Source: Kiritimatiellia bacterium
Lineage (GTDB): Bacteria; Verrucomicrobiota; Kiritimatiellia; JAKQHR01
Assembly: GCA_050178035.1 (NCBI GenBank)
Contig: JBFXGK010000001.1
Location: 128,679-192,678 of the forward strand
DNA length: 64,000 nucleotides
Reading direction: 5' to 3'
The translations under genes and the position numbers were made by a program. Each line of letters opens with the position of its first letter. Positions within the stretch are counted from its first letter, which is position 1. Under the pieces are notes generated by a model. That model did not search any database. It had not been told where the DNA came from and worked only from the letters and a program-made list of their open reading frames with translations. This document shows, piece after piece, positions 11,340 to 26,624 of the stretch.

Positions 11340-12395
11340 TCAGGGGGCCGGGCCTGCAACATTTACGGACGAACAGCATTTCTTCTTCGCGGGTTTGCGG
11401 CCGGACCAGAGGGCGCAGCCCAGCACAGCGGCCAGCGCAGCCGTTGACACCAGCTTCATCCAGTACGGCATCATGGCGTGCGCCATGTGGTCCACATGCA
11501 CATGATCCGGGATGATCACGTTGTCCAGCAGCAGCCCGAAGGCCAGCGCCGAAACGGCGATGGTCGCCAGATAGATCAGAACGGACTTGTTGCCCATCAT
11601 GCTGCGGATGATGGCAATGGTGGCCGCATTGGTGGCGGGGCCGGTCATCAGGAACACAAACGCGGCACCCGGCGTGATGCCCTTCATCATGAACGCCGCC
11701 GCCACGGGCACGGAAGCTGTCGCGCAGACATAGACAGGAATGCCCATCAGCATCATCACCACCATGGACAGGAAGCCGGTGCCCAGATATTCCGCAAAGA
11801 AATCCTCGGGGATCAGCGCGGTGATCAGGGCCGCTACCGCGAGGCCGATCACCATGTCGCGCGCAATGTGCTTCGGGAGGGTGATAAAGCCGTGGCGAAG
11901 CCCGTCCAGAAACCGGTTTCTTTTGTGGTCATGCTTCGCGCAGCAGGGATCTTCGCAGGGCTCAGGCACCTGATCGGGTCCCTTCCCGGATGAAAAATCC
12001 ACCAGCCATCCGCCCAGGATTCCCGTCAGCAGGGCGGCAATGGGACGCACAATCGCAAACACCATTCCCAGCAGGCTGTAGGTTACAAAAATACTGTCCA
12101 CCCCGGTCTGCGGTGTGGAAATGAGGAAAGCGGTGGTGGCACCCCTGCTGGCGCCGTGCTTGCGGAGGGAGGCGGAGACGGGGATCACGCTGCAGCTGCA
12201 CAGCGGAAGCGGCACACCAAAAGCGGAGGCCTTGATCACCGGCCATATGCCGCGGCCGCCCAGATGGCGTTCCACCGTAGAGGCGGAGAGGAACATGGAA
12301 AGAATGCCGGCCACAAAGAATCCAAACAGGAGGTATGGGGACATCTGCACGAGCACGTCCCAGAACGAATTCAAGACAGCCCAAATAGTTTCCAC
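11340..12395 (-). CDS. permease, ArsP/DUF318-like (putative metal or metalloid transporter)
   Basis: 351 aa, polytopic; Cys motif PLPLCSCSVIP reminiscent of ArsP-type permeases. Confidence 0.65.
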   Translation of the reverse strand: METIWAVLNSFWDVLVQMSPYLLFGFFVAGILSMFLSASTVERHLGGRGIWPVIKASAFGVPLPLCSCSVIPVSASLRKHGASRGATTAFLISTPQTGVDSIFVTYSLLGMVFAIVRPIAALLTGILGGWLVDFSSGKGPDQVPEPCEDPCCAKHDHKRNRFLDGLRHGFITLPKHIARDMVIGLAVAALITALIPEDFFAEYLGTGFLSMVVMMLMGIPVYVCATASVPVAAAFMMKGITPGAAFVFLMTGPATNAATIAIIRSMMGNKSVLIYLATIAVSALAFGLLLDNVIIPDHVHVDHMAHAMMPYWMKLVSTAALAAVLGCALWSGRKPAKKKCCSSVNVAGPAP

Positions 12396-12445
12396 TTCAC
12401 TATCTCCTTCCAGTAAAAATACTGCACCGATGGCTTTAGATCAAC

Positions 12446-12925
12446 TCAGAGCACCTCTTTCAGGGCGGATTCGTAGACCGAACGGTGATTGAAACCGCTG
12501 ATCTGGCGGAGCTGGCGGCCGTTCTCATAAATGCGGACATCGGGAATGCCCACTATCCCGGCAGCCTGCGCTTCGGCTGCATGTTTGTCCACATTCACCC
12601 CGACAAAGAGCACGCGGCCGGCATAATCCCCCGCGAGCTTGTCCAGCACCGGCTTGAGGCTCTTGCAGGGTGGACACCAGTCGGCATAGTAATCAACAAG
12701 AACCGCGCGGTTGCTTTGGACAATCCCCGCGATGGTTTCGCCGGGGGCAGGCAGATAAATGTTTTGCGGGGTGCGGGTGCCGATTTCATGCCACGCAATC
12801 AAACCCGCGATCACAGCGCCGATGAAGGCGCCGTTCACGGGGGCCAGATGCAGTCTTTTCACCTTCAGGCACGCAATGAACCCAATCAGTGCCCCAAAGG
12901 CCGCCGTTAAAATCAGGATCAGCAT
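12446..12925 (-). CDS. membrane-anchored thioredoxin-family protein
   Basis: 159 aa; N-terminal TM helices, WCPPC active site. Confidence 0.8.
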   Translation of the reverse strand: MLILILTAAFGALIGFIACLKVKRLHLAPVNGAFIGAVIAGLIAWHEIGTRTPQNIYLPAPGETIAGIVQSNRAVLVDYYADWCPPCKSLKPVLDKLAGDYAGRVLFVGVNVDKHAAEAQAAGIVGIPDVRIYENGRQLRQISGFNHRSVYESALKEVL

Positions 12926-14494: not shown

Positions 14495-15643
14495 CTATGA
14501 CAATTTCTGTCCAAGCTGTTTTTCGTATTTTCTGAAATCCGCTGCGGACCCGGCCATTTGGATACCGACGAGTACGCCATCCTTCACCAGAAGGCCGCGG
14601 AAAATTTCAGCACTGTGCTCCAATATTACCGTATGAATCCCATTTGCGCAAGCCGGACCGATTGAATTTACGGCGAAGCCCGCGTGAGAGTAGAATATGG
14701 GCGAATCTGAAGGCTGGTGAGCCGACAGGGCCATTCCCTGCGCCGCCGAAAGCGCGTTGACTGCGGCCACCTTGCCCTGCAGCACGGCCTCCAGCGCGCA
14801 AAAGATATCTACATGGTCCCATTCAGCAATATCTCCGCAGGCAAAGACCGAAGGTGCGGATGCCTGCATCTTCATATCCACCCGTATCCCCTTCCCGCAA
14901 ACGAGCCCCGAGGATTTCGGAAGCGTCACATCGCGGCGCGCGCCCACCGCCAGCACCACCAGGTCCGCTGTCATCACGTCGCCGGACTCCATTATGAGTT
15001 GGAAATCCCCGGCATTCTGCCTGGCAATGGACGACACCGTGGTCCCCAGAAGGATTTTAACGCCCATCGACCGGAGTAAATTCTCGACGACTTCAGACGC
15101 ATCCGTGCACAAGTTGGACAGCATCAAATGCTCCAGGCGCTCCACCAGCACCACGTCCAGACCGGCAAGTGCTCCGCGATGCGCCACTTCCACCCCCAGA
15201 ATTCCGCCCCCGATCACCACCAACTTCCTGCCGGGAGCCAGCGTCCCGCGGATGTCTTCGGCATGCTCTATGTGCCATAGCGGATGAATATGTTTCCGCG
15301 CGGAATGCGCGAACGGCGGTATGGCTGGACCGGATCCGATGGAAAATATAATAGCATCATACGACTCTGTTCCCCGTCCGGATGTCAGGGTTCGCGCAGC
15401 TGAATCACAGGCCGTGACCGGAGTGTCCAGCCGCAAATCGATTTTGCGCGACGCATACCACGCCAAGTCATGCATCGTGATGTCCTCCAGCGAGGACTGC
15501 GCAAAAGCGTACCCGACCAGCTTGGGGCGGTAATACGGCAAGACCTTTTCCGCCGAATACAAATGGACTTCCGCTCCCTGCGCGGCGGCCGTTTCGGCCG
15601 CCTTCACGCCCGCATGGCCCGCGCCAATGATTCCCAGCTTCAC
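14495..15643 (-). CDS. NAD(P)H:rubredoxin oxidoreductase-like FAD-dependent pyridine nucleotide-disulfide oxidoreductase
   Basis: ORF 14495..15709; two Rossmann motifs (LGIIGAGHAG, LVVIGGGILGVE). Start set to GTG at 15643 (VKLGIIGAG), overlapping the PtsI-like stop (GTGA). Confidence 0.75.
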   Translation of the reverse strand: MKLGIIGAGHAGVKAAETAAAQGAEVHLYSAEKVLPYYRPKLVGYAFAQSSLEDITMHDLAWYASRKIDLRLDTPVTACDSAARTLTSGRGTESYDAIIFSIGSGPAIPPFAHSARKHIHPLWHIEHAEDIRGTLAPGRKLVVIGGGILGVEVAHRGALAGLDVVLVERLEHLMLSNLCTDASEVVENLLRSMGVKILLGTTVSSIARQNAGDFQLIMESGDVMTADLVVLAVGARRDVTLPKSSGLVCGKGIRVDMKMQASAPSVFACGDIAEWDHVDIFCALEAVLQGKVAAVNALSAAQGMALSAHQPSDSPIFYSHAGFAVNSIGPACANGIHTVILEHSAEIFRGLLVKDGVLVGIQMAGSAADFRKYEKQLGQKLS

Positions 15644-17253
15644 GAAACCGCCGCCTTTCGGACCGCGGGTATTGCGCGCGGGCTGCAGCTCACGGATTTT
15701 ATGCCGCATTCCATCAGTTTCCTGACCATCACCGGATCACTCGCCAGTTCGCCGCATACGGACAGCGACCGCCGGTGTTTTTCGGCGGCCGCTGCGATTC
15801 CGCGCAGCACCTGCCAGAACACCGGATGGTCAGAGGTGTATTCGTCAGTCACCAGCTCATTGCCGCGGTCCACCGCAAAAAGATATTGAGTAAGATCATT
15901 CGTGCCGATACTGGCAAATTGAGCCTCGGCCAGAATGGCATCCGCCTGAAGGGCGGCCGACGGGACTTCAAACATCACCCCGAATTCAATGCTGCCGGTT
16001 TTAATGTCCTCCACCATTTCTTTGAACATGTCGCGCAAGCGCCGGAATTGCGCAACATCAACGATCATGGGGAACATCACACGAACAGGGCCCTTCAGCG
16101 ATGCGCGTGCAATGGCACGCGCCTGATCACGAAACAGGTTCGGATGGCGGATCAGCAAACGGCTGCCGCGCAGGCCCAATGCGGGGTTTTCCTCCTTCGG
16201 AATCCTCATTGCCGGCAACGGCTTGTCTCCTCCGGCATCGAGCATCCGGAATGTGGTCACACGGCCTTCCATGGCCTCGACCACAGGCGCATAACGCGTA
16301 TACTGCGCTTCTTCAGACAGCAATTCGCCTGCGGATATGAATTCGAATTCCGTCCGGTAAAGTCCAATGCCCTCTGCCTTCATTTCGCGGGCTTCGGACA
16401 CTTCCCGGCCCAGTGTGATGTTGGCCATCACCTGAAGTTGCGGGACGGTGTCAACGGCTCCGTCACGGCGCGCCCTTCCCGCCTCGCAAGAGCAGGCGGC
16501 AATTGTTCTTTCATCCGGAGAAATGATCACTTCACCGGTGTCTCCATTCACAATCAGCTCTGTGCCGCAAGCAACGGTGCTGTGAATGTTCTTGATGCCG
16601 CTGACCGCGGGAATGCCCAGCGCGCGCGCAAGGATCGCAGCATGCGAGTTGACACCGCCATGTTCGGTGACAAATGCCAGAACCTCCCCGGTGTTCAAAC
16701 TGACGGTAAGGCTGGGCGTCAGCTCTTCGGCAATGACAATGCGGTTTTTGCCCCGGCGGCAGCGGCCGGCGCAACTGAACCCCGGTGCGGTATTGGACAG
16801 GTTGTCCAGCAGGCGGCGGCGAATCTCACCGATGTCAGACGCCCGCTCGCGAATGTACTCGTTGTCGAGAGCGCCCAGTTTCGTCTCATAGGCATCGAGC
16901 ACCGTATGAATCGCATTTTCAGCGTTGCGCAGGGCGGAACGGATGTGTTCGCGCAGCTGCTTAAGGATCATTGGATCCTCGACAATCATTTTCTGCGCAA
17001 CAAAAATGCCGGCCTCGGCCTGGCCCATCCGGTTTTCCACATGCGCGCGGATATTTTCAAGCTGCTGGGCTGTGGCTTCCACGGCATCTTCCATACGCTT
17101 GACTTCATCGTTGAGCTGTGCGGGTTCAATGGCGTAGTCGGGAACCTCCTGATGACGGTGATCATCAAAAAGGCAAACGCGGCCAAGGGCCACTCCTTTG
17201 CTCAGAGAAAGGCCTTGAACGCGTTTTTCAGCAGTTTTGTTTCCAGTGGCCAA
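15640..17253 (-). CDS. ptsI: phosphoenolpyruvate--protein phosphotransferase (PTS Enzyme I-like)
   Basis: 537 aa; EI motifs: catalytic His region GGVNSHAAILARALGIPAV, IGTNDLTQYLFAVDR, CGELASDP; N-terminal domain aligns with EI. Confidence 0.85.
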   Translation of the reverse strand: MATGNKTAEKRVQGLSLSKGVALGRVCLFDDHRHQEVPDYAIEPAQLNDEVKRMEDAVEATAQQLENIRAHVENRMGQAEAGIFVAQKMIVEDPMILKQLREHIRSALRNAENAIHTVLDAYETKLGALDNEYIRERASDIGEIRRRLLDNLSNTAPGFSCAGRCRRGKNRIVIAEELTPSLTVSLNTGEVLAFVTEHGGVNSHAAILARALGIPAVSGIKNIHSTVACGTELIVNGDTGEVIISPDERTIAACSCEAGRARRDGAVDTVPQLQVMANITLGREVSEAREMKAEGIGLYRTEFEFISAGELLSEEAQYTRYAPVVEAMEGRVTTFRMLDAGGDKPLPAMRIPKEENPALGLRGSRLLIRHPNLFRDQARAIARASLKGPVRVMFPMIVDVAQFRRLRDMFKEMVEDIKTGSIEFGVMFEVPSAALQADAILAEAQFASIGTNDLTQYLFAVDRGNELVTDEYTSDHPVFWQVLRGIAAAAEKHRRSLSVCGELASDPVMVRKLMECGIKSVSCSPRAIPAVRKAAVS

Positions 17254-17431: not shown

Positions 17432-18640
17432 TCACTCCTGTTTGATCTGTTTACAGATTTCCAATGCCTGATCTGCAAGCATACTACCGGCTTCCCGGCA
17501 AAGCGCAAGATCATCTGCCCGCGGCACATATTGGACCTGGATGGGCTCGCGGAGAATCCGGACTTTCATATCCTCAAGATATTCATTCACCTCCTGTGCC
17601 CCGCCCTTCGCCCAGCCATACGATCCGAATGCGAATCCCGCCTTGCCGGCGGGCTTCAAGCCCTTGAGATACGTCAGCACGGCTGCCGCCTGCGGCATCA
17701 GCGTTCCGTTCAGCGTCGGCGACCCGAAAGCAAATGTTGCCGCATCCAGCATCTCCGTGGCCAGCGTGGTGGTGTTGCTTGCCCGGATGTAGAACAGCTT
17801 GGCGTCAACTCCGGGCTTTGCGGCGCCTTCCAGGATGGCGTGCGCCATTTTCTCGGTGCTTTTCCACATGGTGTCATAAATGACCAGCACCTTGGGCTTC
17901 GGTTTGCAGACCATCCATTCGCTGTAGGCCTGCATGATTTCCTTTACATGCCTGCGCCAAATCACCCCGTGGCTGGGGGCAATCATTTCGACGTCCAGCC
18001 CACCCACCCCGCTCAGCACGCGAGCGATGGGTTTGCTGTAGAGCATCAGGATGTTTGCATAGTATGTCTTTGCCTCGAACATGACCGTGTTCAGCGGTTC
18101 CTCATCGTCAAAGCGTCCGGATGAGGCATAATGCTGGCCGAAGCCATCCATCGAGAAAAGAATCTTTTCCTCCGGCACATAGGTGGCCATGGATTCCGGC
18201 CAGTGCGCCATCGGCGTTTCCACAAAGACCAGCGTCCGCTTGCCCAGGGAGAGTTTGTCTCCGTCTTTAACAATCTTGAACTTCCAGCCGGTGATGTCGT
18301 GATGAAGCGCAAGAGCCTTCTGGCATTTGTCATCACAGACAATCTCCGCCTGCGGACAGGCGGCCACAACTTCCGGAAGAGAACCGGCATGATCCAGCTC
18401 GGCGTGATTGCAGACAATGTAATCAATCTTCCGAAGATCAATCAGCCTGCGGACATTGTCCAGCAGCTGTTTGCCAAAACCGGCCTTGACGGTGTCAATC
18501 AGCGCGTTCTTGCCGTCACGCACCAGATAGGCGTTATAGGTGGATCCGCGACGGGTTTCGTATCCATGAAAATCGCGGACATTCCAGTCCACGTATCCCA
18601 CCCAGTCAATGTTGTTCCGCAGGCTCGTGTTCATATGCAA
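17432..18640 (-). CDS. flavodiiron protein (FprA / rubredoxin:oxygen or NO oxidoreductase)
   Basis: 402 aa; metallo-beta-lactamase-like diiron domain ([14 protein letters not shown]) plus C-terminal flavodoxin domain. Confidence 0.9.
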
Positions 18641-18703: not shown

Positions 18704-19045
18704 TCACGTCGCCGGCTGGCGAATCATGATCAGCAGCATTTTGAACTGCTTTTCCGCCCAGAGAGAATGCGGAACATTTGCCGGCATGATCACCAATTGC
18801 CCGGCCCGGGCAGTCAGCGGATTTCCGCCGATGTTGATAACCACCTCGCCGTCCAGAATCTGAACAGCCGCATCATACGGTGATGTGTGCTCGCTGAGCC
18901 CCTGCCCCGCATCAAAGGCAAACAGGGTCAATGAGCCCACGTCTTTGTTCATCAGAGTCTTGCTGACGACCGAACCGGAGGCATAGGCGACCTCTTGAAC
19001 AAGTTCAAGGGGCCGCCCTTTGTAGTCTTCGCTGCCCATGATCAC
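18704..19045 (-). CDS. cupin domain protein
   Basis: 113 aa; cupin motifs (GLSEHTSPYDAAVQILDGEV ... PANVPHSL). Confidence 0.65.
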   Translation of the reverse strand: MIMGSEDYKGRPLELVQEVAYASGSVVSKTLMNKDVGSLTLFAFDAGQGLSEHTSPYDAAVQILDGEVVINIGGNPLTARAGQLVIMPANVPHSLWAEKQFKMLLIMIRQPAT

Positions 19046-19410
19046 TCCGCGGGCGCGACAGGCGCTTCCGCCTCAGGGGCCTTTGAAACGCAGCCCGCTT
19101 TTTCCATCATCGGGCATCCGGCCTTGCCTTCAGCCTTCATGCTTTTGCAGCAGGCCATGCAACCAGGCGATCCCGCATGCTTTCCGCACTTCGGGCATAC
19201 CGCGGCGCCTTCTTTGCAGCACAGTTCCGAACCCGCAACCTGGCCGCATTTCCCGCACAGCGCGGGCGCAGCTTCCTCCGATGTCGAAGAGGCCTTCATT
19301 TCTGCTGCCGGTTCAACCGCCGCAGCGGCCTTCGCCGCGCAGCAGGGCCCGGCAAAGGAAACCGATGAAACGGCCAGCACCATTAAAATAACCATTATTC
19401 CGACTTTCAT
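19042..19410 (-). CDS. secreted cysteine-rich small protein (hypothetical, putative metal-binding)
   Basis: ORF 19042..19545; start set to ATG at 19410 (MKVGIMVILMVLAVSSVSFA signal peptide). Mature part has 14 Cys in CC and CxxC arrangements. Confidence 0.5.
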   Translation of the reverse strand: MKVGIMVILMVLAVSSVSFAGPCCAAKAAAAVEPAAEMKASSTSEEAAPALCGKCGQVAGSELCCKEGAAVCPKCGKHAGSPGCMACCKSMKAEGKAGCPMMEKAGCVSKAPEAEAPVAPAE

Positions 19411-19466
19411 AACACTCACCTTTCTTCCCTTGTGGGAATTGAAGTATACGCACCAGGGGCAATAAA

Positions 19467-20249
19467 TCAAATGGCCTTGATCGAAAGAATGTCGCCGGTG
19501 AGACTCATGACCGCTTCTTCCACCACCAAATCCTCCCGCCCGCATCTTTCAGCGGCAGCGCGAACCATCATGGTCAGTCCACCGCAGCAGGGAACCTGCA
19601 TTCTGACGACAATGACTTTGGGGATGGACGGCTCAGCAAATATATCGGCCATTTTTTCCACATAGCCGTCTGTACGATCCAGCTTTGGGCAGGCTACAAC
19701 CAAGCCCCTGCCCCGCAGAAAACGCCAGTGCACGTCAGCCGAGGCGATTGGTCCGCAGGTGCTCATCACCACCAGCTCGCGGTTCTTGAAGAACGGCGCA
19801 CCCGCCTGCACCAGATGCAGCTGCACAGGCCACTGCTGAAGCTCCGACGGAATCGCCGTGGGCATCTGCGCGTGGGTCGCCACCGCCGGCTTTGCGGCGG
19901 GAGCATCCGGCACACGCATGCGTGTGCCGGGACATCCCCCGCCCGACGGGGCCAGGCCATGCTTTTTCCCCGCCTCGTCGAACTTCACAACCGCCGCCGC
20001 GCCCTGAGTCTCCGCCACATGCATGCGCGTGGCATTGAAGTCAAAACCATCCGCCTCGCGCTCTTCAATGGTCAGCGCGCCGGTCCGGCATTCACCGATG
20101 CAGTCTCCGAAACCATCGCAGAACTGCTCCTTGACCAGTTTTGCCTTGCCGTTGACGATCTTCAGCGCGCCCTCTGCGCAGGATGTGACGCATTCGCCGC
20201 ATCCGTTGCAGAGGTCTTCATTGATCCTGATGATCTTGCGCTTTGCCAT
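19467..20249 (-). CDS. 4Fe-4S dicluster domain-containing protein
   Basis: 260 aa; N-terminal CNGCGECVTSCAEGAL and CDGFGDCIGECRTGAL ferredoxin motifs; further Cys pairs C-terminally; directly downstream of hcp. Confidence 0.7.
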   Translation of the reverse strand: MAKRKIIRINEDLCNGCGECVTSCAEGALKIVNGKAKLVKEQFCDGFGDCIGECRTGALTIEEREADGFDFNATRMHVAETQGAAAVVKFDEAGKKHGLAPSGGGCPGTRMRVPDAPAAKPAVATHAQMPTAIPSELQQWPVQLHLVQAGAPFFKNRELVVMSTCGPIASADVHWRFLRGRGLVVACPKLDRTDGYVEKMADIFAEPSIPKVIVVRMQVPCCGGLTMMVRAAAERCGREDLVVEEAVMSLTGDILSIKAI

Positions 20250-20250
20250 A

Positions 20251-21900
20251 TCACTTCCCGGCCATCATGGCCGCGACATCGGCCTGCACTTCGCCAGTCG
20301 GTTTGATGTCGAAGTTCTCAACCAGCACTTTGGCGACAGCGGGCGAAAGGAACGCCGGAAGCGTCGGCCCCAGGCGGATGCCTTTCACCCCCAGATGCAG
20401 CAGCGCCAGCAGCACCGCAACGGCCTTCTGCTCGTACCAGGCGATGTCGAACGAAAGCGGAAGGTCATTGATGGAGGCCAGACCGAACGCCTCCTTCAGC
20501 TTCAGGGCGATGACCGCCAGCGAGTAGCTGTCGTTGCACTGCCCAGCATCCAGCACGCGCGGAATGCCGCCGATGTCGCCGAGGTTCAGCTTGTTGTAAC
20601 GGTACTTCGCGCAGCCCGCGGTCAGGATGATCGTGTCCTTTGGCAGAGCCTCGGCTACTTCTGTGAAGTAGCTGCGGTTTTTGTGACGACCATCGCATCC
20701 GGCCATCACCACAAAGCGCTTGATCGCACCGGACTTGACAGCCTCCACCACCTTGCCGGCCACGGCCATGACCTGATTGTGTGCGAAACCACCGACGATT
20801 TCGCCGTTTTCAATCTCCTGCGGCGGCGGACACTTCTTCGCCTGCTCGATGATCGCGGAGAAATCCTTCTGCTTGCCCGGTTTGCGGTCGGGGATGTGCT
20901 TTGCGCCCGGCCAGCCGGCCATGCCCGTGGTGTAAAAACGGTTGAGATAAGAATCCTTCACCGGAATGATGCAGTTGGTCGTCAGCAGGATCGGCCCGTT
21001 GAACGAGGCGAATTCCTTGTCCTGAAGCCACCAGCTCCCGCCGTAGTTGCCGGCCAGGTGCTTGTATTTCTTGAAGGCCGGATAGTAATGGCACGGAAGC
21101 ATTTCTCCGTGGGTATAGACATCCACCCCCGTGCCCTCTGTCTGCTGCAGCAGTTCGTCCATGTCCTTCAGGTCGTGGCCCGAAATCAGAATGCCCGGAT
21201 TTTTGCGGACGCCGGTGGCAACTTTTGTGATTTCCGGATTGCCATAGGTCTCGGTATTGGCTTTGTCGAGCAGCGCCATGGTCGTTACGGCAATTTCGCC
21301 CGCCTTCAGGACCATGCCCACCATTTGATCAACACTGAGTTTCTGAGTGGTCGAGATCAGACCATCAACCACAAACCGGTAGATGGCGTCATCCTCATAG
21401 CCGAGAACAAGCGCGTGATCAGCGTAGGCCGCGATGCCCTTCAGGCCAATGATCAGAAGCTGCTGGAGCGACCGCACGTCCTCGTTCGGCTCGGACGGGA
21501 TGCCGACCAGAAGCGCCTTGACCTGCAGATCCTCGCCCTTCTTCGGAGCCCATGTCGCCGCGTCGGGCAGACTTTTCGCCCAGGCGGCGTCCTTCTTCTC
21601 GCACTGCTTGCGAATGGCGTCGCGCTGCGCAACAGCCTCATGGATCAGGCGGCTGATGACTGCATCGTCAAAGTTGGCATTGGTGATTGTGGAAAAAAGA
21701 CCGCGGATAATGGTCTGTCCGACTGCGCGGTCATACAGGCCCAGTTCATCGGCTTTCTTGCCGGCAATGGCCAGTCCTTTCAGAGAATGGATCAGAAGAT
21801 CCATCAGATTTGCCGTGGGCTCCTGTTTTCCGCAAACGCCCCGGACGGTGCATCCCTGATTCTTCGCGGTCTCCTGACACTGGAAGCAGAACATACTCAT
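20251..21900 (-). CDS. hcp: hybrid cluster protein / hydroxylamine reductase
   Basis: 549 aa; N-terminal [11 protein letters not shown]...CTVRGVCGK Cys cluster and full-length Hcp architecture. Confidence 0.95.
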
Positions 21901-22370
21901 GATTTTCCCTTTCCTTTTTTTGGTTGTTTATAAATTTCAGCCAGCGTTGTTTTCTCAAAGAAAGCGTTCAGGCGGTTTTGAAGAATGCAGACGGACCCCT
22001 TCATCGGGCATTTCCCGCTGTAGGGACAGGGCTGCCCCTTGCGGTTGCAGACATTCATATAGACCGGCCCCTGCACGGCCTCGACAATCCGTGCGAGGCT
22101 GATCTTCCGGGTCGGAAGGGCCAGCAGATATCCCCCGCGCTTTCCGCGCACGGTTTTCACGACTCCGGCTTTTGCGAGCGTCTGCATGATCTTGCGGAGG
22201 GCGGGCAGCGGCACTTTGCAGTCCTTCGCCAGTTCAAGCGTGTCGGTGCGGGTGCACCGCCGGTCCAGCACATGCAGTGCCCGGAGCGCGTAATCGGTCT
22301 CTCTTCTGAGTATTTCCATAAGCCATCCTTTAAATGCGACCAATTTAGTCCTATTTAACTCCCGCGTCAA
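21897..22370 (-). CDS. Rrf2-family transcriptional regulator (NsrR/IscR-like)
   Basis: 157 aa; [10 protein letters not shown]...GGYLLALP wHTH signature; C-terminal Cys residues; 4-nt overlap with hcp start. Confidence 0.85.
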
Positions 22371-22389
22371 CTAATTATATGAAATTATT

Positions 22390-22761
22390 TCAGGAAGTCT
22401 TTTTCGGCCAGGCCTTGAGGACGGCCATCACCTCTCGGACCCAGGTGCAAACGCACTTGACGGGACATCGGCCGTCCTGACCCAGATGGGAGCAGTAACC
22501 CGGACAGTCCGGTCCCCGGTAGGCACACGTCTGCCACACAGGTCCGTCGTAAAGGTTCCGGAAGTCTTCCACCGCCAGGGCAAGCGTGGTCGTGCATTCG
22601 GTCACATGGTTGAAAAGGAAATATCCCAACCGTTCCTCTTCAAAAAAAGGCTGATAGCCAAGAAATTCGACCGATGGATCTGACAGGAATGAATCCCGGT
22701 CCTTCCATGCCGTGCCGCAGGTCGTGCAGCGCTTGTAGATATGTACGCTCTCTTCTTTCAC
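22390..22761 (-). CDS. cysteine-rich hypothetical protein
   Basis: 123 aa; CTTCG, CAYRGPDCPGYCSH, CPVKCVC motifs; first gene of the hcp operon; no family recognised. Confidence 0.45.
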   Translation of the reverse strand: MKEESVHIYKRCTTCGTAWKDRDSFLSDPSVEFLGYQPFFEEERLGYFLFNHVTECTTTLALAVEDFRNLYDGPVWQTCAYRGPDCPGYCSHLGQDGRCPVKCVCTWVREVMAVLKAWPKKTS

Positions 22762-22961: not shown

Positions 22962-24107
22962 TCAGAAGCTGATGTTGCCGCCGCCATCCGTGGCGGTTCC
23001 TGCGATGTTTGTGCTCAAAACGCTGAAGCGGTTGTCAGCATACACGTTGCCGGCTGCTGAAAATACGATGCCGGTGTCAGATCCGGTGATCAGGTTGTTC
23101 TCAATGCAGTTGCGCGCGTTGTTCACATGAATGCCGTTGATCCAATTCCACGACACATTGTTGCCTGCGACATGGCAGGAAAGACTCGCGGAAAGCCCCC
23201 CGCAATCCGGGTCTCTCAGGGAGTTGTTGTTTCCAATGGTGTTGTTGTGCACCGAGCACCCGGTAGAGGCATAAATTCCCCATTCCGCATTGTGCATGCA
23301 AACGTTTTCCCCGATACGGTTGTAATCACCTCCAGAAATTCCATTTTTTGCGTTTTCAGACGCCACATTGCCCTGAATCAAACTCGAATCCCCTGCAACA
23401 ATGCCGGAACTCCCGTTTCCGCATGATGCGTTTCCGGAAACAACGCACCCCTCACCGGCATAGATGCCCCAGTATCCGTTCCCGTACACAATGCACTCTT
23501 CAACCTGCCCGCAGTTCCCTATCTCGATCCCGATTGAGCTGTTGGAAACAACTGTCACACCGTCCAGGATGCAGCCCTCAGTAGGAAAATAGATCCCGAT
23601 GCCTCCGTTGTTTATGATGCGCAGACCAGTCACCCGGTGAGCCCGAGGTTGAGATGAAAGCATAGACTCATAGGCATAAACACCGTTTGCCCCGAACTGG
23701 GCAACCGTTCCGTTGCGTACTTCCACGTTGCGCACGTTTCCGATGTAAATGCCATAGTGTGACACATCCAGCGGATTTCCCGTCAGCGTGAATCCGTTCA
23801 GATCAAGGGCAACATGATCGGCTGAAACAGAGATCCCTCCTTGTGTCACTGTCATGTTGTCTGTCAAATAATAGGATCCGCTGTTGGTGATTGCATAATG
23901 ATAGCCTGAAGAACCCGGCGTGTTGATTGCGCTCAGCGCGGTCCGCGGCTCGGACAGCAGGGTTTGCTGGTGAATTTGATACAGAGTCTTCATTGACGGG
24001 GCGGGCGCGCCCGCCGGCATCAGCAGGCCCTGGGCCAATATGCACTGGGCCCACAGAAGTGCCGACGCAAAAATCATCAGATGTTTCAAGCCAGCCTTCA
24101 TAAGCAT
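22962..24107 (-). CDS. secreted right-handed parallel beta-helix repeat protein
   Basis: ORF 22962..24299; start set to ATG at 24107 (MLMKAGLKHLMIFASALLWAQC signal peptide); Gly/Asn-rich repeats typical of beta-helix (pectate-lyase-like) folds. The N-terminal extension in the track is translation of the T-tract array. Confidence 0.7.
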   Translation of the reverse strand: MLMKAGLKHLMIFASALLWAQCILAQGLLMPAGAPAPSMKTLYQIHQQTLLSEPRTALSAINTPGSSGYHYAITNSGSYYLTDNMTVTQGGISVSADHVALDLNGFTLTGNPLDVSHYGIYIGNVRNVEVRNGTVAQFGANGVYAYESMLSSQPRAHRVTGLRIINNGGIGIYFPTEGCILDGVTVVSNSSIGIEIGNCGQVEECIVYGNGYWGIYAGEGCVVSGNASCGNGSSGIVAGDSSLIQGNVASENAKNGISGGDYNRIGENVCMHNAEWGIYASTGCSVHNNTIGNNNSLRDPDCGGLSASLSCHVAGNNVSWNWINGIHVNNARNCIENNLITGSDTGIVFSAAGNVYADNRFSVLSTNIAGTATDGGGNISF

Positions 24108-24224
24108 CCTCCCTCTTCGGCCTTTGCAGGCTTTTGTTGGAAGAAATGCTATCAAATATTCCGCAGGAAACAATCGAAGAAACGAACCGGTTTGCGCGCT
24201 TCTCGATCTTTTGCGGCGAATTAT

Positions 24225-24315
24225 GAAAAAATTGACGAAATTCGGCCAATTTTGAGCATTTTTAGCCGTTTTTGGCGTGTTTTCGCTAATTTTGGCCATT
24301 TCGATGCTTTTTCAG
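24225..24315. repeat. phased A/T-tract array
   Basis: gaaaaaattgacgaaattcggccaattttgagcatttttagccgtttttggcgtgttttcgctaattttggccatttcgatgctttttcag; T runs every ~10 bp. Confidence 0.5.
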
Positions 24316-24330
24316 GCCCTGCGAAGAACA

Positions 24331-24540
24331 TCATTTGTTACAGCAGGAACCGGCGGATTTCAGACCCATTTTTTTGAAGATCATCTCCGCGGGGCAGAAA
24401 CCCGTAAAGGCGGACTGGATCAAATTGACGCCCACAAAGCAGGCCAGCAACAGCCACCATTGATTCACAAAATGCGCCAGCGCCACACTCACCAGCACAA
24501 GCGTTCCCGCTAGAATACGAATTGCATTTTCAACTGTCAT
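24331..24540 (-). CDS. DUF2892-like small inner-membrane protein (YgaP-like TM domain)
   Basis: 69 aa; two hydrophobic helices and C-terminal FTGFCP motif. Confidence 0.5.
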   Translation of the reverse strand: MTVENAIRILAGTLVLVSVALAHFVNQWWLLLACFVGVNLIQSAFTGFCPAEMIFKKMGLKSAGSCCNK

Positions 24541-24555
24541 GGTTTCTCTCCTGAT

Positions 24556-25815
24556 TTAGAAACTGTAGCGGGCGGAGGCATACACGTTATTGTTGTCCTC
24601 AAATTGCCCGAAGAACGTATAATCCTCGCTGCCCATAAAGACATTCCCGCCAAGCGTGAACTTCCAGTCATCTGTCGCCTTGTACGAAACCGACGGGCGC
24701 AAATAGGCATCCTCGTCCGAGGGCGAATAGAAGGCGAAGAATGACAGCATCAGGTTCTGGTTGAGAAGCTGCTGCGTGAGCCGCAGGGTCAGCACATGGC
24801 GGTCCTCATCCGCCGCATTCATTCCCACTGGCAGAGTCTCTTCGTAAGCATCGTAATCCGCCATCAGTTCCAAATAATATTGAACCGCAAGGGTTAAATC
24901 CTGCATCAGTTCCTGCTGGTATCCGGCCATCAGGCGGGTTTCGCTGTTGCGGATCATAGGGTCATCCCCGTCACAGTCATCGCGCGAGTCATAATAGCCC
25001 GCCTCCAGGTTCGCGATGCCCTTCATGAACTGACCGCGCAGGCTTGCGCCGTACACGCCCAGCTCAGGGAATATCGCGCGGCCGGTCGCCATGTCGGAAC
25101 CTGCCGGACTCTTCCAGAATCCCTCATGGCCATAAACCGCAAGTTCATAACCTTTCACATTGCGTGATACACGGACGCTGATTTCATCGTCCTCGAACCA
25201 TTCATCGGGAATGTCGGCCTCCACAACGGCATCCTGTCCCGATCGCGCGCCGAGCCCGGCGTTCCAGAAGGAAATGCGGTCGCCGGAAATATAACGGTCG
25301 TGATCAAAACGCGGCGTGTAGACCACATCAATGTTCGCCCACGACGGGAACAGGCTCAGCTTCAGCGCATCAGACGGGGCCTTCAAATATTCCTCGTCGC
25401 GACCGATGAAAAATGAATTCCAATCTTTTGGGAACATGTCGTTGATGAACAGCAGGTCGCCCGTGCCCCAGGTCAGGATCTGGCGGCCGGCCTTCAGGTC
25501 CGCCCAGCTCACCGGCGATGCCGAAACATTGGCCTCGCGCAGGTCGATGGCCCCCTCGCCCGTTTCCAGGTCAATGTCATGCTCGTCCAGAACCCAGTCA
25601 TAGAGGAAATCCGACCGTAACTGGAGCGTCAGCGGACCCGCATACTCCAGAACGTCAAGCTGCAGGCGCAGTTCTCCAAGGCTTTCTTTCTCCTGGTTCG
25701 GATCAGTCTGCGTCCGCACGCCCGCGCGCACATCGGCAAAGCCATGCAGATCAACTGCCCGCGCAGCCCCGGCGGCGAGCATGAAGACGGTGAGAAAAAC
25801 AAGCGATCTTTTCAT
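24556..25815 (-). CDS. putative outer-membrane beta-barrel protein
   Basis: 419 aa; signal peptide MKRSLVFLTVFMLAAGAARA, alternating amphipathic strands, C-terminal aromatic YSF. Confidence 0.65.
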   Translation of the reverse strand: MKRSLVFLTVFMLAAGAARAVDLHGFADVRAGVRTQTDPNQEKESLGELRLQLDVLEYAGPLTLQLRSDFLYDWVLDEHDIDLETGEGAIDLREANVSASPVSWADLKAGRQILTWGTGDLLFINDMFPKDWNSFFIGRDEEYLKAPSDALKLSLFPSWANIDVVYTPRFDHDRYISGDRISFWNAGLGARSGQDAVVEADIPDEWFEDDEISVRVSRNVKGYELAVYGHEGFWKSPAGSDMATGRAIFPELGVYGASLRGQFMKGIANLEAGYYDSRDDCDGDDPMIRNSETRLMAGYQQELMQDLTLAVQYYLELMADYDAYEETLPVGMNAADEDRHVLTLRLTQQLLNQNLMLSFFAFYSPSDEDAYLRPSVSYKATDDWKFTLGGNVFMGSEDYTFFGQFEDNNNVYASARYSF

Positions 25816-25823
25816 TTCACTCC

Positions 25824-26612
25824 TCAGCGGGTGGCTTCACGCGGCGGACGTTTCAAAAAGCGCTCGGAGAAAATGGCGTCGTTCAGTCCAATATCGTACT
25901 TCACGCCGCTGAACGCATTGACGGTTTTACCGCCAGTGTTCAGGTCGCTGACCACCGATTCCATGACCGTCGGATACCCCTGAATGGTCTCAACCTTCGT
26001 GCCCTCGACGCGGCGGTAGAGTTTGCCGTTCTTGTCGTAATACTCGGCTTTGCGCGGAAGGAATGTGTCCCGATCAATCCAGACATTGTAAAAGGAAAAC
26101 TCCACTGATCCGGGATCTTTGGGAGTGTTCTTGATCTGGTACTGGCCGCCCTCAGAGGAGACCAGTTCATGCTCATCCGCATTCAGGTTGCGGCCGGATA
26201 CATCCTCGTACACGAAATCCGAACCGACAAAGCTCGTGCGCTTGTCGCCGGGAGCGATGCGGCGGACCAGATCCAGCGCCGGCAGATACATCCATCGGTC
26301 ATCATCCTGCCCCTCGCCCACTTTCTTCCAGACCAGATACACCATGCGGCGCACATCGGCGGGTTCATTGAAATAGACATAGAACTTCTGATTCTTGTCC
26401 TCCGTGTTCAGGCGCAGGATGCGGAACTCGCGGACACGTTCGCCGCCTTTGGCGTCGGTGATCGACATCTTCACATCCGCCTGTCCGTCTTTGCCCGCGT
26501 AATACGCGGCATCATTGGCCTTCGTGATGATTTCATCAACGGTCAAATCAGCGGCAGAAGCAATACCAGCAAATGCAATTATGAATAATGCAGCAAGATA
26601 TATGGTCTTCAT
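25824..26612 (-). CDS. LolA-like outer-membrane lipoprotein-sorting family protein
   Basis: 262 aa; signal peptide; domain family usually paired with MMPL transporters. Confidence 0.55.
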   Translation of the reverse strand: MKTIYLAALFIIAFAGIASAADLTVDEIITKANDAAYYAGKDGQADVKMSITDAKGGERVREFRILRLNTEDKNQKFYVYFNEPADVRRMVYLVWKKVGEGQDDDRWMYLPALDLVRRIAPGDKRTSFVGSDFVYEDVSGRNLNADEHELVSSEGGQYQIKNTPKDPGSVEFSFYNVWIDRDTFLPRKAEYYDKNGKLYRRVEGTKVETIQGYPTVMESVVSDLNTGGKTVNAFSGVKYDIGLNDAIFSERFLKRPPREATR

Positions 26613-26624
26613 ATCAGTCTCCTC

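Follow-up and report, generated by a model that had tools for sequence, protein, structure and literature searches.

An exported cysteine-rich protein from a Kiritimatiellia redox island: a member of an unannotated double-knuckle family and a candidate metal-thiolate protein

Introduction

What does an exported, cysteine-dense protein do in an operon for defence against oxygen and nitric oxide (NO)? The question is raised by a gene on the minus strand of a 64,000-nucleotide (nt) stretch from a Kiritimatiellia bacterium (assembly GCA_050178035.1, contig JBFXGK010000001.1, positions 128,679 to 192,678), called the window below. A sequence-only reading had described its product as a secreted Cys-rich protein, lying inside a redox island, that it could place in no known family. 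In anaerobes, defence against oxygen and NO has been described almost wholly through cytoplasmic enzymes, namely the flavodiiron protein FprA, rubrerythrin, superoxide reductase and Hcp, and an exported Cys-dense partner, encoded in such operons by several unrelated lineages, would suggest that the defence also has a periplasmic arm. We find that the protein belongs, as judged from its sequence, to a large unannotated family, the Cys8 double-knuckle family, whose cysteine columns vary as metal ligands would. The function that we favour, tentatively, is that of an exported metal-thiolate protein recruited to oxidative and nitrosative stress defence.

Results

A translated gene with an export signal

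The gene, the parts of its product and the elements of the spacer in front of it are listed here, with the predicted local distance difference test score (pLDDT) of the structural model where it applies.

19042 to 19410, minus strand: Cys-rich protein gene, 122 amino acids (aa), stop codon at 19042 to 19044 (open reading frame, ORF, and translation)
19351 to 19410, minus strand: Sec-type signal peptide MKVGIMVILMVLAVSSVSFA, residues 1 to 20, predicted cleavage before G21 (inspection, −3/−1 rule)
19261 to 19350, minus strand: N-terminal tail of the mature protein, residues 21 to 50, Ala-rich and flexible, with the CC pair C23 and C24 (pLDDT 52 to 75)
19144 to 19260, minus strand: Cys8 double-knuckle module, residues 51 to 89 (family profile E=2e-13; pLDDT 89 to 95)
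19045 to 19143, minus strand: C-terminal tail, residues 90 to 122, with the Met/Cys motif G-C99-P-M-M-E-K-A-G-C107 and an Ala/Pro/Glu-rich end (pLDDT 45 to 69)
19416 to 19429, minus strand: Shine-Dalgarno-like element GGGAAGAAAGGTGA, 6 to 19 nt 5′ of the ATG at 19410 (read directly)
19443 to 19470, minus strand: sigma-70-like pair TTGATT-16-TATACT, inside the 56-nt spacer 5′ of the Cys-rich gene (consensus scan)

The ORF list and the translation bear out the 122-aa minus-strand frame described in the sequence-only reading, as well as the six motifs quoted from it (GPCCAAK, CGKCG, CCKEG, CPKCGKH, CMACCK and GCPMMEK). The cysteines were overcounted there by one: 14 had been claimed, and the product has 13, at residues 23, 24, 52, 55, 64, 65, 72, 75, 84, 87, 88, 99 and 107. 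It is 100% identical to NCBI MGD9872762.1, a ‘hypothetical protein’ from a Kiritimatiellia metagenome-assembled genome (MAG). By inspection, the N-terminus (MKVGIMVILMVLAVSSVSFA followed by GP) shows a basic n-region, then a hydrophobic core of 15 residues, and S-F-A at −3 to −1, with neither a lipobox nor a twin-arginine motif. The claim of secretion thus stands, a hydrophobic signal being kept in the orthologues of two other loci, L001 and L048 (L and P numbers denote loci and family proteins). Lipoprotein status was rejected, since no lipobox is present.

The L001 orthologue shares about 69% aa identity over 90% of the query (65 to 76% in MAFFT alignments). The ratio of nonsynonymous to synonymous substitutions (dN/dS) between the two is 0.12 for the whole gene and 0.045 for the Cys module, with dS of about 1. 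In the L048 orthologue, from activated sludge, the mature protein is 99% identical, and the signal sequence is divergent yet equally hydrophobic. When the 56-nt spacer was compared with that of L001, GGGAAGAAAGGTGA was its sole conserved block. At the position aligned with 19443 to 19470, L001 reads TTGAAT...TATCTT; this hints faintly that the sigma-70-like pair may be an internal promoter for the part of the operon that comprises the Cys-rich, cupin and FprA genes.

Two outcomes had been named that would overturn the sequence-only reading: a true start at 19545, which would leave the protein without a signal peptide, or an ORF that is not translated. There is indeed an in-frame ATG at 19545, and GC-rich DNA yields many shadow ORFs. 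Against both stand the dN/dS values, the match to the family profile (E=2e-13), a conserved ribosome-binding site (RBS) in an otherwise non-conserved spacer, and the hydrophobic signal kept by both orthologues. Moreover, the ATG at 19545 lies, in another frame, inside the conserved upstream Fer4/AF_0155 gene (19467 to 20249), and was rejected as the true start. We prefer the start at 19410 because of this location of 19545, of the placement and conservation of GGGAAGAAAGGTGA, and of the hydrophobic signal of L048. A spurious or signal-less product is effectively refuted. Given the RBS, the signal peptide, the dN/dS and the signal retained in L048, we take the gene to be real, translated and under purifying selection, and its product, whose signal was recognised by inspection, to be exported by Sec to the periplasm.

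Two other identities were rejected. A precursor of a ribosomally synthesised and post-translationally modified peptide would carry a leader, not a signal peptide, and no modifying enzymes lie nearby. The haem-binding C-x2-C-H motif of c-type cytochromes is absent; the nearest string is C-P-K-C-G-K-H, with His three residues past the second Cys, and His occupies that column in 28% of the family.

A module shared by hundreds of hypothetical proteins

The Cys-rich protein has no Pfam-A match at E<=0.01 and none in NCBIfam. Eight canonical and Sec-type relatives, and two further members, have no Pfam match at E<=1, and the canonical ones no NCBIfam match either. Word-indexed homology searches badly under-reported the family, giving just 5, 7 and 8 matches. 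A 42-position profile of the repeat unit, seeded from the Cys-rich gene, was used in a full HMMER search of 1.84 billion representatives, and found at least 492 protein clusters (50% identity) at E<=1e-3, and 267 at E<=1e-10. Run against the six-frame translation of the window, the A3 module profile (41 positions) gave a single match, the Cys-rich ORF (E=2e-13, 46.5 bits); neither a second copy of the module nor a DsbD gene was found in the six-frame window search. On this profile evidence, the protein belongs to the Cys8 double-knuckle family. The statement that it fits no known family therefore holds for Pfam-A and NCBIfam models, and fails in that the protein is a one-module, Sec-type member of an unannotated family of at least 492 clusters. 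The family was not found described in Pfam, NCBIfam, PDB or the searchable literature, and a full-text literature search for its module motif strings found no paper. Every member with a source name is labelled ‘hypothetical protein’.

The unit is 41 residues long (L-C-x2-C-G-x-[IV]-K-G-[ST]-x2-C-C-x6-C-x(1-2)-C-G-L-x-K-G-S-P-G-C-C-K) and is an internal duplication of C-x2-C-G-x3-G-S/T-x2-C-C. In an alignment of 329 modules, conservation reaches at least 95% in every one of the eight Cys columns, as it does for the Gly that follows each C-x2-C and for some seven Lys positions. Most of 169 members have two modules (141), the others one (16) or three or four (12). A typical member is a lipoprotein of 120 to 150 aa with 17 Cys, that is, the lipobox Cys and two sets of eight. 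About 150 of the 169 carry an N-terminal signal of the lipoprotein, Sec or twin-arginine translocation (Tat) type, the other 19 being fragments or unclear, and a lipobox is present in at least 99.

Twin-arginine motifs (e.g. RRRSFLK, RRRDILK, SRRDVLK) occur in P0018, P0052, P0118, P0131, L024, L026, L031, L049, L053, L056 and L057. Because of these signals, we suggest that this subgroup folds, and probably loads its cofactor, in the reducing cytoplasm before export. The Tat lipoprotein subfamily also carries extra cysteines in its modules (CLLCCKCG..., ...DLCCCNKPDQPRC...).

In species-representative genomes, all of them MAGs, the hosts are mostly Planctomycetota (Pirellulales, Phycisphaerae); the others are Verrucomicrobiota, Anaerolineales, Sumerlaeia, Marinimicrobia and one Granulosicoccus.

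In the window protein, the first half of the module reads C52-x2-C55-G-x3-G-S-x2-C64-C65 and the second C72-x2-C75-G-x3-G-S-x2-C84-x2-C87-C88. Residues C52, C55, C64, C65, C72, C75 and C84 align with the first seven Cys columns. The last group, C84-x2-C87-C88, resembles the C-x3-C variant of 13 other modules, with C87 here at +3 and C88 at +4. Sec-type single-module relatives without a lipobox are P0005, P0009, P0010, P0166, L058, L064 and L066. The tails have parallels as well: ‘CC(G)AAK’ after the signal is also found in the Sec-type relatives P0002, P0009, P0045, P0166, L058, L064 and L066, the C-x-M-M-x-K-x-G-C motif is kept in the orthologue P0002, and a similar ‘GCPMK’ ends the L040 protein. 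Three members (L050 7371 to 8288, L052 7344 to 8261, L054 3297 to 4013) have a long, low-complexity, Cys/Ala/Thr-rich N-terminal extension (CCPSMAAAAKDAPGCC...CASSC...) before two modules, and their last module ends in GSPGCMACC, like the window protein.

Cysteine columns that vary like metal ligands

Metal sites tolerate that a single Cys gives way to His or shifts by one turn, and disulfide partners are usually lost together. Column C16 is lost in 10 of the 329 modules, which fall into about five independent groups; all ten retain the other seven Cys. In nine of them a His stands two residues before C17 (‘HxC’, as in DHRC, DHVC, NHAC, EHKC); of the 319 intact modules, only 3 have a His anywhere in this stretch (Fisher p=2e-14). 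Column C37 is lost in 16 modules, with a Cys at +4 from C36 in 13 and a His at +4 in two, and in one case C36 itself is replaced by His. Because single Cys losses are made good by His or by a shifted Cys, the behaviour of the columns fits metal ligands, not disulfides.

A disulfide-rich structural protein of the envelope, in which the eight Cys of each module would form four disulfides, as in chlamydial OmcA or the Cys-rich wall proteins of Planctomycetes, is very unlikely in our view. Exported Cys-rich domains are usually disulfide-bonded, and the export of the family, mostly as lipoproteins, the even number of Cys per module and a distribution centred on the Planctomycetes, Verrucomicrobia and Chlamydiae (PVC) superphylum all agree with such a role. 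It accounts poorly for modules left with seven Cys and a His, given that partners are normally lost in pairs. Members with a Tat signal would, in addition, already be folded in the cytoplasm, a reducing compartment; the family occurs in genomes of the strict-anaerobe type, DsbD, a supplier of reductant, adjoins family genes in two loci, and no match to Chlam_OMP3, Chlam_OMP6 or another Pfam family was found.

The composition of the modules points to metal ligands too. The module core contains 23.5% Cys, 16% Gly and 13% Lys with 0.64% aromatics, and the mature window protein has no aromatic residue at all. High Cys, Gly and Lys with almost no aromatics is the classical signature of metallothioneins. 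These are small Cys-rich proteins with metal-thiolate clusters (PMC7558416).

Fusions are of two kinds. On the metal side, YHS domains (PF04945) are fused to modules in 6 of 50 long members and in L023, L028, L030, L037 and L040, and long His/Asp-rich tails, typical of stretches that bind divalent metals, are carried by L017, L022, L042 and 14 members of the 169. In the first three, these tails end two-module lipoproteins (L017 4821 to 5426, L022 4107 to 4559, L042 4866 to 5360; e.g. DDDHDHDHADHDHEGHDHDDDDHDHAGHDH). On the redox side, a C-terminal thioredoxin is found in L023 and an AhpC/TSA peroxiredoxin domain in one member (P0081). The earlier suggestion of a metal-binding, metallothionein-like or thiol-redox protein is thus strengthened by the Cys to His swaps, the composition and the YHS, thioredoxin, peroxiredoxin and His-rich fusions, metal binding itself being read from sequence.

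A predicted fold of two knuckle hairpins

In the AlphaFold2 model of the full protein (111-sequence alignment), pLDDT is 89 to 95 for residues 49 to 91 and 45 to 75 for both tails. The module alone, modelled from 120 aligned modules, reaches a mean of 93.7. DSSP assigned only isolated bridges flanking each C-x2-C-G and a short C-terminal helix. The sequence echoes found in PDB are below significance and come from zinc ribbons only (HVO_2753-like 9fhl_C, E=0.004; bL32, E=0.05 to 0.9). The model thus depicts two knuckle hairpins, zinc-ribbon-like in their local elements, and was matched to no solved family.

The statement that the protein has neither ferredoxin nor rubredoxin spacing needs to be split for its rubredoxin part: the spacing does differ from that of rubredoxin, and the two C-x2-C-G elements are nevertheless knuckles of the rubredoxin and zinc-ribbon type.

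A redox island headed by an Rrf2-type regulator

Annotation of the neighbours by Pfam and NCBIfam confirmed that the gene lies inside a redox island. The genes closest to it, and the thioredoxin near the end of the island, are as follows.

18704 to 19045, minus strand: cupin gene, product small and cytoplasmic (Pfam Cupin_2, E=3e-10), with a 4-nt overlap (GTGA) with the stop of the Cys-rich gene
17432 to 18640, minus strand: flavodiiron protein FprA, downstream in the operon (Pfam ODP and Flavodoxin_1)
19467 to 20249, minus strand: Fer4/AF_0155-type protein, upstream in the operon (Pfam, NCBIfam)
20251 to 21900, minus strand: hybrid-cluster protein Hcp, upstream in the operon (Pfam, NCBIfam)
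21897 to 22370, minus strand: Rrf2-family regulator, upstream in the operon (Pfam, NCBIfam)
12446 to 12925, minus strand: thioredoxin with the motif WCPPC (Pfam Thioredoxin, E=5e-22) and two N-terminal transmembrane helices

The island reads, all on the minus strand, a 123-aa Cys-rich ORF, Rrf2, Hcp, Fer4/AF_0155, the Cys-rich gene, cupin and FprA, and continues with a PtsI-like gene, Pyr_redox, rubrerythrin, desulfoferrodoxin, ferritin, thioredoxin and an ArsP_1 permease. The same gene order is found in L048 and in L001, where a rubredoxin replaces FprA. The Rrf2 protein did not match NsrR or any other NCBIfam equivalog. The overlap with the cupin gene is likewise 4 nt in L001 (ATGA), and cupin is, to judge by this overlap, translationally coupled to the Cys-rich gene.

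These neighbours raise another candidate role, that of a periplasmic rubredoxin-like Fe(Cys)4 electron carrier for the oxygen- and NO-reducing enzymes of the island. FprA, rubrerythrin and desulfoferrodoxin all use rubredoxin, a true rubredoxin takes the place of FprA in L001, two C-x2-C-G knuckles are present, the second (CPKCG) exactly as in rubredoxin, and the Tat signals of some relatives would permit export of a cofactor-loaded protein. The window protein itself has a Sec, not a Tat, signal, and FprA, rubrerythrin, desulfoferrodoxin and Hcp of the window show no export signals, so that an exported carrier could not reach them. Rubredoxin knuckles are spaced by about 29 residues; those of the module are 16 residues apart, and the aromatic core is absent (0.64% aromatics). 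Furthermore, Pfam Rubredoxin (PF00301), which recognises the true rubredoxin of L001, does not match the window protein. We give this electron-carrier role little probability.

Between the island thioredoxin and the thioredoxin domain of the L023 fusion, identity is 37%. The island protein is a candidate for the reductant of the Cys-rich protein on the periplasmic side, its orientation being deduced only from a positively charged KVKR loop. With the ArsP_1-type permease it forms a pair that ends the island (11340 to 12925, minus strand) and that is kept in L001 (13386 to 14930). An ArsP_1 permease also precedes the operon of rubrerythrin, family gene and desulfoferrodoxin in L030 (2847 to 3695). 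This association may tie the island to the handling of thiophilic metals or metalloids.

Other components of the island deserve mention in their own right. The PtsI-like PEP-utilising enzyme lies within the oxidative-stress operon both in the window (15640 to 17253, minus strand) and in L001 (9062 to 10660). A 49%-identical homologue is found in an unrelated locus, L040 (7761 to 9356), between a DsbH-like gene and rubrerythrin, and in L003 an HPr gene follows the family gene (1804 to 2109); these are components of phosphotransferase-system-type phosphotransfer lying in oxygen-defence clusters. The Fer4/AF_0155 protein (260 aa) has an N-terminal 2x[4Fe-4S] ferredoxin domain and a C-terminal AF_0155-type domain (PF27217 in L001). 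Since a 42%-identical homologue follows rubrerythrin, adjoining a family member, in L065 (1371 to 2126), it is a recurrent, uncharacterised component of stress islands. Directly upstream of Rrf2, the 123-aa cytoplasmic Cys-rich ORF (22390 to 22761, minus strand) begins with ...CTTCG..., ends with ...CPGYC...CPVKCVC... and has no Pfam or NCBIfam match. It is conserved in L001 (78%) and in L048 (98%), and is for this reason probably a real, uncharacterised first gene of the island. Further upstream, the minus-strand region 22962 to 29603 comprises a NosD-like beta-helix gene (22962 to 24299), then DUF1302-like outer-membrane protein, LolA-like and MMPL/RND-type transporter genes (24556 to 29603). 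It resembles a gene cluster for the export of envelope lipids or lipoproteins, with no apparent relation to the Cys-rich gene.

Gene neighbourhoods across the family

The proteins of the island and the redox proteins of other loci were searched by tblastn against all 75 fetched loci, of which about 53 are distinct. An earlier Pfam census of neighbours, made on greedy longest ORFs, was unreliable, with shadow ORFs in high-GC loci and the rubrerythrin and desulfoferrodoxin of L030 missed. The following loci place a family gene next to redox or stress genes.

L030 (Planctomycetota MAG), one strand: ArsP, rubrerythrin, a YHS plus two-module lipoprotein gene with its own RBS, a 16-nt gap, desulfoferrodoxin, ferritin
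L023 (Sumerlaeia): fusion of YHS, two modules and thioredoxin, then FprA (63% identical to that of the window)
L068 (metagenome): two-module Sec protein, then FprA (60% identical to that of the window)
L065 (metagenome): family gene, rubrerythrin, Fer4/AF_0155-like protein
L040 (uncultured bacterium): family gene, DsbH-like thioredoxin-domain protein, PtsI-like protein (49% identical to that of the window), rubrerythrin
L036 (Planctomycetota MAG): family gene, then DsbH-like protein
L003 (metagenome): DsbD, family gene, HPr, periplasmic peroxiredoxin
L056 (metagenome): Tat-type family gene, then DsbD

Counting the Kiritimatiellia lineage, about 8 to 9 of the roughly 53 distinct loci have a redox or stress context. 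Linkage to hcp is confined to the lineage of the window. The co-occurrence with fprA and hcp proposed as a check is therefore found in part: fprA, rubrerythrin and desulfoferrodoxin recur beside family genes in several unrelated lineages, hcp does so in a single one, and most members lie outside redox islands. In the neighbourhoods of Tat-type members no recurrent family was seen, apart from one DsbD. In L004 (2 to 813), the partial member P0008 and the start of a TorD/NarJ-type chaperone gene overlap, and tatA, a gene for a TauE-like permease and moaA come next; this single case hints at a link with the maturation of Tat-exported molybdoenzymes.

Such neighbours could also be those of a metal-free thiol-redox protein, cycling between thiol and disulfide, that would reduce periplasmic oxidants (H2O2, HOCl or NO-derived species), either sacrificially or with recycling, or serve as a relay from DsbD or thioredoxin to a target. 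DsbD (L003, L056), thioredoxin-domain proteins (L036, L040) and a peroxiredoxin (L003) are recurrent neighbours, fusions to thioredoxin (L023) and AhpC/TSA (P0081) exist, family genes are located in oxygen and NO defence operons, and C-x2-C is also a classical redox-active motif. We nonetheless regard a metal-free protein as unlikely. A swap of Cys for His brings no benefit to a thiol/disulfide cycle, the module lacks a thioredoxin fold, the hairpin geometry and the conserved Gly behind each C-x2-C are what metal knuckles typically show, and the YHS and His/Asp-rich fusions point to metals. Thiol-redox activity is compatible with the metal-thiolate explanation if the reactive species are the metal-thiolates themselves.

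The loci devoid of metal or redox neighbours, which are the majority, would suit a quite different protein, a zinc-ribbon-like tethered binding or adaptor domain for an envelope protein or an anionic polymer, in which the metal would be purely structural. The rigid, confidently predicted fold, the seven conserved Lys positions per module and the lipid anchor with long disordered linkers are in keeping with it. It is an improbable explanation all the same: no partner is conserved in the neighbourhood, the fusions are to metal and redox domains, not to enzymatic or binding domains, and recruitment to stress operons recurs. As to the Lys positions, metallothionein Lys neutralise the charge of Cys4 sites, and their conservation would be equally expected on that account.

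Discussion

The explanation that we favour, an exported metal-thiolate protein recruited to stress defence, would work as follows. After Sec export to the periplasm, the structured core (residues 51 to 89) would form one Cys8 module, in which two C-x2-C-G knuckles and two CC pairs would supply eight thiolate ligands, arranged as two tetrahedral sites or one small cluster. The flexible tails, with five further Cys and a Met-rich C-P-M-M patch, would add capacity. The reduced cysteines would hold thiophilic metal ions outside the cytoplasm, most likely Zn(II) or Cu(I), possibly Fe. Zn(II) is favoured by the C-x2-C-G knuckles, the Cys to His swaps and the His/Asp tails, and Cu(I) by the YHS partners and the C-P-M-M tail. 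In the Kiritimatiellia lineage, the gene would have been recruited into an operon for oxygen and NO defence headed by Rrf2, and be co-expressed with detoxifying enzymes and iron storage. Under oxygen or nitrosative stress, the protein would act as a periplasmic metal-thiolate buffer, capturing toxic soft metals, those that become available or dangerous upon oxygenation, and/or oxidants and NO. Eukaryotic metallothioneins absorb oxidants and NO through their thiolates. The thiols would be kept reduced by a periplasm-facing thioredoxin or a pathway of the DsbD type; a dedicated electron supply is suggested because of the repeated association with DsbD, exported thioredoxins and peroxiredoxins. 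We infer metal binding, and with it the identity of the metal, the stoichiometry, the buffering role and the reductant.

Several observations weigh against this explanation. About 45 of the roughly 53 loci are mostly monocistronic genes amid housekeeping genes, with no conserved neighbour, and the redox contexts would be clearly enriched, as is inferred, against a chance level of about 1 to 2% per locus, itself a rough estimate that lacks a proper genomic background. The stress role may therefore be specific to some lineages, and the core function of the family could differ. Aerobic Planctomycetota make up many of the hosts, and free thiols would tend to become oxidised in their periplasm. The window protein is itself atypical, with one module, no lipobox, an altered last pair (C-x2-CC) and extra cysteines in its tails. 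Finally, the module had no significant structure or sequence match to any characterised metal-binding domain, and no fold match in PDB. The Cys8 family is, at this stage, a well-defined and testable family-level lead, not an established function.

A broader proposal can be made, which we hold to be doubtful. The module could define a first class of extracytoplasmic bacterial metallothionein-like proteins, lipid-anchored or exported by Sec or Tat, which anaerobes have repeatedly wired into operons of rubrerythrin, desulfoferrodoxin, flavodiiron protein and Hcp. Such proteins would shield the cell with an outer layer of thiolates, in which soft metals (Cu(I), Zn, Fe) and reactive oxygen and nitrogen species would be caught ahead of the cytoplasm; DsbD or exported thioredoxins would recycle the proteins.

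Small Cys-rich metal-binding proteins are already well known; no description was found, in Pfam, NCBIfam, PDB or the searchable literature, of the module treated here, of its place outside the cytoplasm, of the lipoproteins built by its repetition or of its repeated recruitment to the stress operons of anaerobes. Since the module is short, conserved, confidently modelled and present in hundreds of ‘hypothetical’ clusters, a function found for one member could serve the whole family, and it could supply a new metal-handling component for the envelope biology of Planctomycetota and the PVC superphylum.

Among known systems, the bacterial metallothioneins (SmtA/BmtA, MymT) resemble the family in being small and very rich in Cys, with conserved Lys and almost no aromatics, and in having mixed Cys/His ligands and a zinc-finger-like element inside a metal-thiolate cluster. 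They differ in that the known ones are cytosolic and have another Cys pattern, whereas the members of the family are exported, consist of one to four or more repeated modules and have a fold predicted to be rigid. The Pfam model Metallothio_Pro/SmtA (Cys9His2 pattern) matched neither the window protein nor the relatives tested.

Of the exported thiolate metal stores, only Csp1 has been studied well, and its helical fold is an unrelated one. Tat takes this protein, which has 13 Cys, to the periplasm, and its thiolates store Cu(I) (PMC7558416). Periplasmic export and the number of 13 Cys are shared with the window protein, but Csp1 is a four-helix bundle with a Cys-lined core, the Cys8 module is almost free of helix and built on C-x2-C-G knuckles, and the two have no sequence similarity; likewise, the Csp model (DUF326-type) of Pfam did not match the window protein or the relatives tested. 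Zinc ribbons and rubredoxin (bL32, HVO_2753-type proteins, rubredoxin) share with the predicted fold of the module paired C-x2-C-G knuckles in beta-hairpins. YHS/TRASH domains are, like the module, short and Cys-based, and are implicated in heavy-metal trafficking. YHS is the N-terminal fusion partner of several members, not a homologue, and the window protein is without a YHS domain, its ‘GCPMM’ tail only loosely recalling the CP[VI]MGG with which the fused YHS regions of other members begin.

The N-terminal domain of E. coli thioredoxin 2 and Hsp33, which have redox-switch centres of the Zn-Cys4 type, combine Zn-binding C-x2-C pairs, induction by oxidative stress and coupling to thiol oxidoreductases. 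The likeness lies in C-x2-C pairs joined to a thioredoxin fold, as in the L023 fusion; both proteins are cytoplasmic and not homologous in sequence to the family. Chlamydial OmcA, lastly, is also a small and very Cys-rich lipoprotein of the PVC superphylum. It acts through intermolecular disulfides, whereas the Cys to His swaps of the family argue for metal ligands.

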